Shown piece by piece: positions 41,801 through 42,520 of a DNA stretch of 64,000 nucleotides. Source of the DNA: Verrucomicrobiota bacterium (GTDB taxonomy: Bacteria > Verrucomicrobiota > Verrucomicrobiia > Limisphaerales > UBA11358); assembly GCA_036803685.1 (NCBI GenBank), contig DAIRTX010000010.1, positions 2,074 to 66,073 of the forward strand, in the 5' to 3' direction. Positions within the stretch are counted from its first letter, which is position 1. Each line of letters begins with the position of its first letter. A model generated the notes under the pieces. That model was not told where the DNA came from and made no database searches. It worked only from the letters and a program-made list of their open reading frames with translations. The translations under genes and the position numbers were made by a program.

Positions 41801-42520
41801 TACGCCTACCTGTTGTTGCCGCGCCACGTGAGCCTGCTGACCGACGTGCGCAAACGCATCAGTGCCATCCGGCAGTACTCTACGCTTGGCAGCGGATTCA
41901 AAATCGCCATGCGTGACCTCGAAATCCGCGGCGCGGGCAACCTGCTCGGCTCGGAACAAAGCGGCCACATCACCGCCGTCGGCTTCGAGCTTTACTGCCA
42001 GTTGCTCAAACAAAGCGTCGCGGCGTTGAAAGGCGAAAAAGTCAAACCTCGGGTCGAAGTCAGCATGAAATTGGATTTTATTTCGTTGAATTCGGTTGAA
42101 TCAGGTAGGGCGGGCAGTCCTCTGCCCGCCGCTGATGGACACGACGACGGCGCGCACGGAGTGACGCGCCCTACCACCGCAGCTCTGCCGCACAACTACG
42201 TCACCGAACCACAACATCGCATCGAAATTTACCGCAAGCTGGCGCAAGCCAATGAAAAATCCGCGCTGGAAAGTTTGCAGAAAGAACTGCGCGACCGCTT
42301 CGGCCCATTGCCGTCGGCGGTGGAATTATTGCTGCAAGTGGCTGAATTGAAAATTCTCGCCAGTGAGAAAGCCGTGAGCGCCATCGAGGTAAAGGATGAC
42401 AAGCTGATGCTCACGCGCCAGGACGATTTCATCATGCTTGGCGGCAAGTTCCCGCGACTGACAAAGAAACAAGCCGGCGCGCGATTGAAGGAAATCAAGA
42501 AACTGTTGCTGGCGATTTGA
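38840..42520 (+). CDS. mfd: Transcription-repair coupling factor Mfd
   Basis: 1226 aa. '[16 protein letters not shown]', 'DEEQRFGV', 'SATPIPRTL', 'QLRGRVGR' and the CarD-like '[14 protein letters not shown]'. It is about 80 aa longer than the E. coli protein (1148 aa, from memory) and the excess coincides with repeat elements. Confidence 0.96.
39107..39180. repeat. Hairpin element inside mfd: arm GGTCGAGAGTCGAGCATCGAGGGTCAAGGG, loop, arm (CTCAACC)x4
   Basis: Four perfect CTCAACC units lie at 39153..39180. The element encodes '[25 protein letters not shown]'. Confidence 0.88.
39281..39340. repeat. 60-bp element inside mfd: CTCTCAACTCTCAACC direct repeats flanking a GC-rich core
   Basis: It encodes '[20 protein letters not shown]' in 20 codons. 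Confidence 0.8.
39711..39731. repeat. (CTCAACC)x3 array inside mfd
   Basis: Read directly; it encodes '[10 protein letters not shown]'. Confidence 0.88.
40214..40278. repeat. Hairpin-type element inside mfd built of GTCGAGA / CCCTCGAC heptamer variants
   Basis: GAGTCGAACGTCGAGAGTCGAGAG ... CCCCCGACCCTCGACCCCCGACCCTC. It encodes '[22 protein letters not shown]'. Confidence 0.75.
40539..40564. repeat. (CAACTCT)x~3.7 array inside mfd
   Basis: Read directly. It encodes 'STLNSQLST' and is preceded by the CTGCC-ggcg-GGCAG hairpin at 40511..40524. Confidence 0.88.
42104..42175. repeat. 72-bp GGTAGGGC...GCCCTACC family element inside mfd
   Basis: Outer stem GGTAGGGCG/CGCCCTACC with inner GGGCAG-tcct-CTGCCC. 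It is exactly 24 codons, codon-aligned, and encodes '[24 protein letters not shown]'. Confidence 0.88.

Follow-up and report, generated by a model that had tools for sequence, protein, structure and literature searches.

The window analysed here is a stretch of 64,000 nt from a Verrucomicrobiota bacterium (GenBank assembly GCA_036803685.1, contig DAIRTX010000010.1). It carries the gene mfd (38840..42520, plus strand), whose product, a transcription-repair coupling factor of 1226 amino acids (aa), was identified with TIGR00580 (969.6 bits for a cut-off of 800). Within this gene, a codon-aligned insert of 72 nt occurs at 42104-42175 on the plus strand and encodes residues 1089-1112; its start falls on a codon boundary of the open reading frame (ORF), at an offset of 3264 = 3 x 1088. 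The original prediction, made from the letters of the window, had described an exact 24-codon, 72-bp palindrome lying codon-aligned in mfd, and its sequence, its frame and the identity of Mfd were all confirmed. The data presented below indicate that these 72 nt are very probably a non-autonomous mobile element of the GTAG-tagged class of repetitive extragenic palindromes (REP), in the form of an inverted dimer that resembles a REP doublet forming hairpin (REPIN) and is tolerated in the linker between domains D6 and D7 of Mfd.

The whole element reads GGTAGGGCGGGCAGTCCTCTGCCCGCC-GCTGATGGACACGACGAC-GGCGCGCACGGAGTGACGCGCCCTACC and consists of two REP units separated by a spacer, an assignment based on its folds and on the same dimer being found at other loci. 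REP1 (42104..42130, plus strand, 27 nt) begins with G-GTAG, the tag occupying 42105-42108, and continues with a 9-bp stem (42109-42117/42122-42130, GGCGGGCAG/CTGCCCGCC) closed by a TCCT loop; as single-stranded DNA (ssDNA) it folds with -13.1 kcal (z -5.9). The spacer (42131..42148, plus strand, 18 nt) is the variable part of the family. REP2 (42149..42175, minus strand, 27 nt) is inverted and reads GGTAG-GGCGCG(T)CAC-TCC-GTGCGCGCC on the minus strand, which places CTAC at 42171-42174 of the plus strand; its 9-bp stem is interrupted by a 1-nt bulge and capped by a loop of 3 nt (ssDNA -10.2 kcal, z -3.6). In the RNA fold of the 72 nt, the arms GGTAGGGCG/CGCCCTACC base-pair with each other, as had been proposed for the outer stem, and the fold reaches -41.7 kcal/mol vs -29.1 +/- 3.2 for shuffles (z -3.97). 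The ssDNA fold is made of two separate hairpins, with an unpaired GGTAG 5' of each. The inner stem GGGCAG/CTGCCC of the original prediction is indeed present, but is really the 9-bp stem of REP1, and a second hairpin in the right half of the element, GGCGCGCAC-GGA-GTG(A)CGCGCC, had been overlooked.

Both units have stems and loops within the 5-13 bp and 2-20 nt that define GTAG-tagged REPs, and both GTAG tags (42105-42108 and, on the minus strand, 42174-42171) are unpaired 5' of their hairpin. The tags lie at the outer ends of the inverted pair, the arrangement that characterises a REP dimer or REPIN, and every testable defining feature of a GTAG REP dimer was found in the element. The motif GGTAGGG occurs five times in the window for 1.21 expected, each time at an end of one of three elements (starting at 42104, 24343 and 25715). 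Searches with the Rfam 15 covariance models gave no match with E <= 1 between 41800 and 42500 on either strand, and promoter and terminator scans gave no signal at the element.

The exact 27-mer of REP1, used as query in a scan of metagenomes from peat, soil and lake samples, was found in at least 120 contig stretches, and matches to the REP family were detected in nine related genome loci; the window itself has one copy of this family together with REPs of sister families. The census was carried out on DNA because the word index of the protein search is unsuited to such short queries: a 75-aa concatenate of the three open frames, searched against 5.8 billion proteins, returned six weak matches and missed the Mfd proteins. 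Among the matches listed, to which the counts of copies given in this text refer, 97 of 129 REP1 matches have an inverted partner (...GCGCCCTACC) within 220 nt, as expected for inverted dimers, with spacers of 0-53+ nt, the commonest being 21 nt for a total of 75 nt. A pair of REP1 and REP2 with 0-3 mismatches per arm was also found at a second, non-homologous site of mfd, in a loop of the RNA polymerase (RNAP)-interacting domain that is occupied in the window by a repeat insert of 12 aa (hotspot 6 of those described below), namely in loci L018 and L074 (57 nt) and L022 and L029 (75 nt); in L074 the second site is filled and the first is empty.

Beyond mfd, in-frame copies bring the number of host protein families confirmed by Pfam to 12. 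Besides Mfd, the hosts include the CCA-adding enzyme (in two orthologues), a RluA-type pseudouridine synthase, a Type ISP restriction enzyme, an UvrD/AddA-like helicase-nuclease and PriA; the other hosts are protoporphyrinogen oxidase (PPOX), a trypsin-like protease, MiaB, a Zn-dependent dehydrogenase (Zn-ADH), an E2 acyltransferase and two Ser/Thr kinases occupied at different sites. Copies were initially called intragenic when at least 70 open codons extended on each side, and these calls were corrected with Pfam. The copy located in PriA (L165) had been wrongly missed by the ORF-based call, and four calls proved false, three of them (L091, L127, L185) in reading frames that match no Pfam family and one (L193) upstream of the start of a prepilin gene. 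One more copy (L171), for which no Pfam scan was made, was left out since its reading frame looks as Arg-rich as those of L091, L127 and L185. No target-site duplication was observed, as flanks were identical over 2, 3, 4 and 5 nt in 11, 5, 1 and 0 of 94 copies vs 5.9, 1.5, 0.4 and 0.1 expected, and position -1 is A or T in 73 of these 94 copies. Six loci (L087, L097, L100, L105, L113 and L188) contain a 55-nt variant of the dimer that has almost no spacer and a shortened REP2 and is nested in longer inverted flanks (GGTAATGCGTCACTGAYGGMGGGG...GACGCATTAC), which suggests a composite repeat built round the REP dimer.

The site occupied in the window was compared in 119 close Mfd proteins (75-100% identity), in which the segment from KLDF(L) to LPHNYVTEP varies in length from 50 to 105 aa between fixed anchors and contains at least 10 unrelated recognisable peptide families, also among close relatives (Mfd 75-95% identical). 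At the DNA level, 13 of 77 orthologous loci are empty and have 5-6 codons at the site (for example LGDAGN), and the remaining 64 are occupied by inserts of 20-55 aa, most of which are strong hairpins (-20 to -92 kcal/mol). These occupants include GTAG...CTAC-tagged dimers of several families and, commonly, inverted arrays of 7-nt repeats (for example L021 and L047). At the same site, L032 has a decayed remnant of REP1, GGCAAGATGGACAGTCCTTTGCGTGCC (3781-3840, 19 of 27 positions identical), from which spacer and REP2 have been deleted and which encodes SGKMDSPLRA. Because empty sites and unrelated occupants are found in orthologues, the 24 residues lie outside conserved Mfd; they are not conserved in the orthologue alignment that had been proposed as a check, and this, together with the dispersal of the family, bears out the idea of selfish DNA tolerated in frame inside a gene, which thus withstood the two refuting conditions set in the original prediction. 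Judged from sequence, the combination of empty and filled orthologous sites with the same dimer at non-homologous sites corresponds to the mobility expected of a REPIN-RAYT system, RAYT standing for REP-associated tyrosine transposase.

When aligned to solved Mfd structures, window residues 905-1067 correspond to E. coli Mfd 828-990, and 1114-1183 to ca. 1010-1079, so that 46 unaligned residues including the insert replace ca. 19 residues of the D6-D7 connector (E. coli Mfd ca. 991-1009). Long flexible linkers are known to join the modules of Mfd (PMC7864632). Overall, repeat-derived inserts occur in the window mfd at seven indel hotspots (aa ca. 100-117, 161-170, 298, 377-391, 465-480, 575 and 1089-1112), each of which was found both empty and filled among the Mfd proteins of the clade, and the same repeat families recur at different hotspots. 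Of the hotspots open to checking in M. smegmatis Mfd, two are free of inserts.

Three of the six frames of the element are open, yet the 13 independent in-gene copies of the heterodimer all have one orientation and one frame, which reads GRAGSPLPA...GAHGVTRPT (p = 6e-7 vs three equiprobable frames; p = 1e-4 vs orientation alone). Outside genes, neither orientation of the copies is favoured with respect to the ORFs next to them (8 ++ and 13 --), and the one-frame bias therefore reflects what is translatable rather than the mode of insertion. The original prediction had taken a length divisible by three, together with the preserved frame, as a mark of selection. Such lengths are modestly enriched, with 10 of 13 copies in genes vs 20 of 47 outside (Fisher p = 0.029), but this comparison is confounded because the commonest, or master, form of 75 nt is a multiple of three wherever it occurs, intergenic copies included, and because the tag-to-tag length is not always the inserted length. 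Moreover, three genuine in-gene copies measure 76, 91 and 97 nt from tag to tag, the frame being restored elsewhere. The single orientation and frame of in-gene copies is thus a stronger sign of selection than length.

A candidate for the enzyme that would mobilise the family was found in L172, where the product of an ORF (6158-6622, minus strand) matches the NCBIfam model NF047646, 'REP-associated tyrosine transposase', at 85.4 bits (E = 3.5e-24, for a cut-off of 80). In its alignment with TnpA-REP of E. coli (4ER8, E = 2.8e-6), both HUH motif and catalytic Tyr coincide (PDHLH on PEHMH and YILMNPVRKG on YIYINPVKHG), and its score on Pfam Y1_Tnp is 14.6 bits, below cut-off. This locus contains five copies of the REP1 27-mer, and the RAYT gene is flanked on both sides, since REP1/REP2 dimers abut its 3' end and also occur ca. 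80 nt upstream of its start. Homologues ca. 80% identical to this RAYT lie 4-39 nt from a REP1 match in L098, L138 and L178, with one more in L198, and fragments were detected in L112, L152 and L164. Altogether, a RAYT gene stands beside the exact 27-mer in five full and three partial cases in the 120 loci listed, for ca. 0.1 expected by chance (a rough estimate for a single-copy RAYT in a genome of several Mb). The association is no search artefact because the loci were fetched by the 27-mer alone. A putative cognate RAYT flanked by its own REPs, as in REPIN-RAYT systems, is thus present in related contigs. In L172 the arrangement forms a 'REPtron' (5957-6831), with two tandem REP1/REP2 dimers abutting the 3' end of the RAYT gene and, on its upstream side, a single dimer with an additional REP2; three more dimers are clustered 1.7 kb away (8519-8987), and a small GCGCGGCTTCGCGC hairpin precedes each dimer of this locus.

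By analogy with E. coli TnpA-REP (PMC3479197) and the REPINs of Pseudomonas (PMC3116915), the RAYT, an HUH/Y1 enzyme, would bind the REP hairpin on ssDNA, cut at GTAG, and move or copy the dimer. One copy would have landed in the flexible D6-D7 connector of Mfd, where translation in the sole stop-free forward frame would give a 24-residue loop rich in Gly, Pro, Ala, Ser and Thr, and copies that break or poison the protein would be removed by selection. The mfd copy would persist because the linker is a permissive site and the frame is free of stops. The loop is probably disordered, and Mfd most likely carries the insert as a neutral passenger.

Several observations weigh against this interpretation. 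No RAYT gene was found in the 64-kb window, and the element is linked to a transposase through other contigs in which an identical REP occurs. The three elements of the window, at the mfd site and on the two sides of murA, are alike only in tag and architecture. In an AlphaFold2 model of Mfd residues 501-1226 based on 33 close homologues, the mean predicted local distance difference test (pLDDT) score is 50 and the predicted template modelling (pTM) score 0.29, the insert scoring ca. 30 like half of the protein, so that the model is too poor to show disorder. Finally, the REP arms (54 nt) are 96-100% identical between genomes in which the flanking mfd codons are 77-88% identical and their third positions 56-72%, and the same host junctions are found in diverged genomes despite this divergence of the flanks. 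A simple old neutral passenger does not predict such conservation, for which re-invasion, gene conversion or selection on the arms is required.

The spacers found at orthologous sites fall into different sub-families, which are present at unrelated loci too. For instance, orthologous sites hold different spacer sub-families (57 vs 75 nt) in L018 and L074 vs L022 and L029 at mfd hotspot 6, and in L155 vs L197 in the gene of the CCA-adding enzyme; the elements of L018 and L074 differ by 1 nt, their flanking mfd sequences being 70% identical. The type of occupant is almost uncorrelated with a neighbour-joining (NJ) tree of the conserved columns (61 Fitch changes for 119 tips), a mapping too non-tree-like to separate turnover from recombination. 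The same site may have been invaded again, its occupant may have been altered by gene conversion with dispersed copies as donors or exchanged in situ by the RAYT, or alleles may have recombined. Because three host sites, namely the D6-D7 linker of Mfd, the loop of its RNAP-interacting domain and the CCA-adding enzyme, show near-identical arms, the same junctions and different spacers when orthologues are compared, it is conceivable, if rather unlikely, that in-gene copies are docking sites at which REP dimers are repeatedly exchanged in situ, and not static passengers. Cassettes would then be swapped through cutting by the RAYT at the outer GTAG/CTAC, or through gene conversion that the 27-nt arms prime. 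Such exchange, if true, would produce hypervariable but always in-frame linkers in repair proteins, Mfd and UvrB among them, with a possible effect on the autoinhibition of Mfd.

The conservation of the arms, which far exceeds that of flanking synonymous sites, may also be read as a sign that the insert or its hairpins have been co-opted. The peptide would then be a module of the D6-D7 linker whose length or flexibility sets the autoinhibition of Mfd, or else a structure in mRNA or DNA would be selected, be it as a translational pause between domains, a stability element of the mRNA or a landing pad for the RAYT. This reading would agree with a site that is filled in the majority of the clade's loci (64 of 77), with the one strict frame and with the recurrence of nucleotide excision repair (NER) genes as hosts (mfd and uvrB in the window; see also PMC3733652). 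Recent re-insertion or gene conversion explains the conserved arms equally well, however, and the site is empty in orthologues that look functional, has decayed to a remnant in L032 and elsewhere accepts occupants that are interchangeable among at least 10 unrelated families very different in sequence and length. Since the same element is also found in 12 unrelated protein families, and neither an Rfam match nor a terminator signature was detected at the element, we regard co-option as quite unlikely.

That the element is short, non-coding, palindromic and dispersed would suit a miniature inverted-repeat transposable element (MITE) of a conventional DDE insertion sequence, or another mobile element independent of RAYTs, the adjacency to RAYT genes being then coincidental. 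This is very improbable given that insertion left no target-site duplication, that the termini are GTAG/CTAC at the foot of a hairpin and not long terminal inverted repeats, and that the five full and three partial cases of a RAYT beside the 27-mer contrast with the ca. 0.1 roughly estimated by chance. A linker made hypervariable locally, by slippage, duplication or recombination between mfd alleles, would account for the 61 Fitch changes over 119 tips, which fit a shuffling of alleles, and the period-7 arrays at other mfd hotspots could grow by slippage. Nevertheless, identical 54-nt arms occur at many unrelated loci and genes (the 27-mer being found in at least 120 contig stretches), and such a source is extremely improbable; because identical arms recur at unrelated loci, local processes are ruled out for the origin of the insert. 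Recombination is possible as a secondary redistributor of alleles, not as their origin. The reading retained here remains that of a mobile REP dimer tolerated in the linker.

Repeats other than GTAG-tagged dimers were found at several hotspots of the window mfd. Perfect or near-perfect 7-nt tandem arrays are located at 39153-39180, 39280-39295, 39711-39732, 40253-40276 and 40538-40564, with units CTCAACC (x4 and x3.1), TCAACTC (x3.9) and CCCCCGA (x3.4), and their in-frame translation at four other hotspots gives peptides resembling QPSTLNPQP; a peptide of this type also occurs in a kinase (L183) and in Oter_3011 of O. terrae. With a period of 7 nt, gain or loss of a single unit in coding DNA would shift the frame, and the lengths looked stable across orthologues. 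A palindrome devoid of GTAG tag (39935-39989, aa ca. 366-388) has 24-nt arms that are 96% complementary (GTTGGAGTTCAAGCTTCAGCTTGT/ACAAGCTCAAGCTTGAACTCCAAC) and encodes 23 residues; its family is present at the same hotspot in L002, L005, L008 and L030. In tblastn comparisons, the frame of mfd switches at or near repeat hotspots in L004, L010, L024 and L050 (near hotspots 2-4) and in L013 (aa ca. 680). The names of these metagenome-assembled genomes (MAGs; 'MFD...bin / contig_') suggest long-read assemblies, and the switches may reflect misassembly of repeats and hairpins or real copies that break the frame.

Elsewhere in the window, two intergenic elements flank murA (24437..25699, minus strand; TIGR01072, 542.9 bits for a cut-off of 392.7). 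The one that lies 8 nt downstream of the murA stop (24343..24428), recognised by scan and fold, groups three REP units with a G(T/C)AG tag, of which two are forward and one is reverse. The other (25715..25773), located between the murA start and the stop of the upstream gene, is a dimer of a GCAG-tagged unit and an inverted GTAG-tagged unit (-27.8 kcal, z -6.6). Both display the G-G(T/C)AG-GG tag and hairpin architecture of the mfd element with different stem sequences. They had been assigned to the same family as the mfd element; their existence, intergenic location and position around murA stand, but what is shared is the superfamily of GTAG-tagged REPs and not the sequence family. A second intragenic dimer, of a different family (GTAGCC...GGCTAC type), occurs at 47053..47131 in uvrB (46215..48428, minus strand; NF003673, 1011 bits), where it makes up most of an insert of ca. 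31 aa that is absent from solved UvrB structures. With REP dimers in mfd and uvrB, two NER genes of one window have intragenic REPs. Another dimer of the GTAGCC type, CGTAGCCGCCGACGTCAGTCGGCGC...GCGCGGACTGACGTCCGCGGCTACG, is intergenic (53085..53148; ssDNA -29.2 kcal/mol, z -8.1). A generic scan of the window for 'GYAG plus hairpin' was noisy, with 28 matches vs ca. 16 in shuffles.

Arrays with a period of 7 or 8 nt were also detected outside mfd (16647-16726, 26355-26384, 13508-13654 and 53754-53826). They comprise AACATCC x5.4 followed by ATCACGC x4.7, GGTTGAG x4, which is the reverse complement of CTCAACC, and two intergenic hairpins made of inverted short-tandem arrays. At 12657-12759, an intergenic inverted repeat (GGAGCGCGGCGTTCACGCCGCTTCAAC...GTTGAAGCGGGCTGAAGCCCGCGCTCC) has an in-frame reading ERGVHAAST..., and this peptide family is inserted at mfd hotspot 3 in L001, L005, L011 and L021.

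These data extend the REP/REPIN-RAYT association, studied mostly in Proteobacteria, to abundant uncultured Verrucomicrobia of soil and peat, for which a candidate cognate transposase and its REP pair are identified. They also offer a natural experiment in which one gene of essential type has seven hotspots that are empty or filled by many families across ca. 200 relatives. The resulting data locate the places at which Mfd can accommodate 20-100 additional residues and show selection on the reading frame, not on length alone. For annotation, such inserts lead to overlong proteins and to spurious 'hypothetical proteins', and they may be a source of frameshift artefacts in MAGs assembled from long reads. 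The understanding of Mfd or of REPs is unchanged by the finding, whose main value lies in the hotspot data, in the use of a single frame and in a conservation of the arms that a neutral passenger does not predict.

In-frame selfish palindromes are not confined to this clade. The Rickettsia palindromic elements (RPE), described by Ogata et al. in 2000, are reportedly inserted in frame in many unrelated genes, at surface-exposed positions where they are tolerated. RPE-1 measures ca. 100-150 bp, and the hosts of RPE are obligate intracellular Alphaproteobacteria. RPE are not known to have a dedicated transposase. The mfd element behaves like RPE but belongs to a different sequence class, with a GTAG instead of a CGTC tag, a length of 72 nt and a verrucomicrobial host; RPE-4 and RPE-6 have been equated with CGTC REPs (PMC3733652).

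With REPIN-RAYT systems (Bertels and Rainey 2011, PMC3116915; PMC3337134; PMC5581495) the mfd element shares a unit made of two inverted REPs and a short spacer, a RAYT flanked by its own REPs and a family sequence that persists across diverged genomes. Those systems have been described mainly in Gammaproteobacteria and as extragenic, whereas here the dimer is found in genes as well and its spacer varies from 0 to 53+ nt. In the REP of E. coli, also organised as bacterial interspersed mosaic elements (BIME), the GTAG is likewise located 5' of the hairpin foot and is the HUH/Y1 cleavage site of TnpA-REP (4ER8; PMC3479197), but the RAYT found here has only distant similarity to that enzyme (E = 2.8e-6) and E. 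coli REPs are extragenic.

The closest likeness is with the GTAG-tagged REPs defined, together with their dimers and their link to RAYTs, by Di Nocera, De Gregorio and Rocco in 2013 (PMC3733652). In both cases, GTAG stands at one end of a 6-9-bp stem-loop, RAYTs are associated, a verrucomicrobial host is involved, and the dimers are inverted, vary in their spacers and can fold either as two hairpins or as a single long one. Most copies are intergenic, between unidirectional or convergent genes, and a minority lie wholly within ORFs and encode 20-30 aa, with repair and replication proteins, E2 acyltransferases, kinases and DNA methylases overrepresented among the hosts. Among the genomes of that study, intragenic GTAG REPs are most numerous in the verrucomicrobium Opitutus terrae, in which dimers encoding 20-30 aa occur in ca. 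70 ORFs, including uvrA, DNA ligase, dnaE2, E2 acyltransferases, a kinase, a DNA methylase and others, many of them repair genes (PMC3733652). The peptide families of O. terrae (VAGVADPG, GTGVPPV, VGPALAAG and HGRDARAT) differ from GRAGSPLPA and GAHGVTRPT found here, as do stem and loop, and the present host clade is an uncultured subdivision 3 of Limisphaerales type, unlike O. terrae. Mfd is absent from the list of hosts in PMC3733652, which likewise does not describe multi-family hotspots, a single-frame rule or the conservation of the arms relative to flanking DNA. The mfd element is a clean new example of REP dimers tolerated inside genes, which were already documented in the related bacterium O. 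terrae (PMC3733652).

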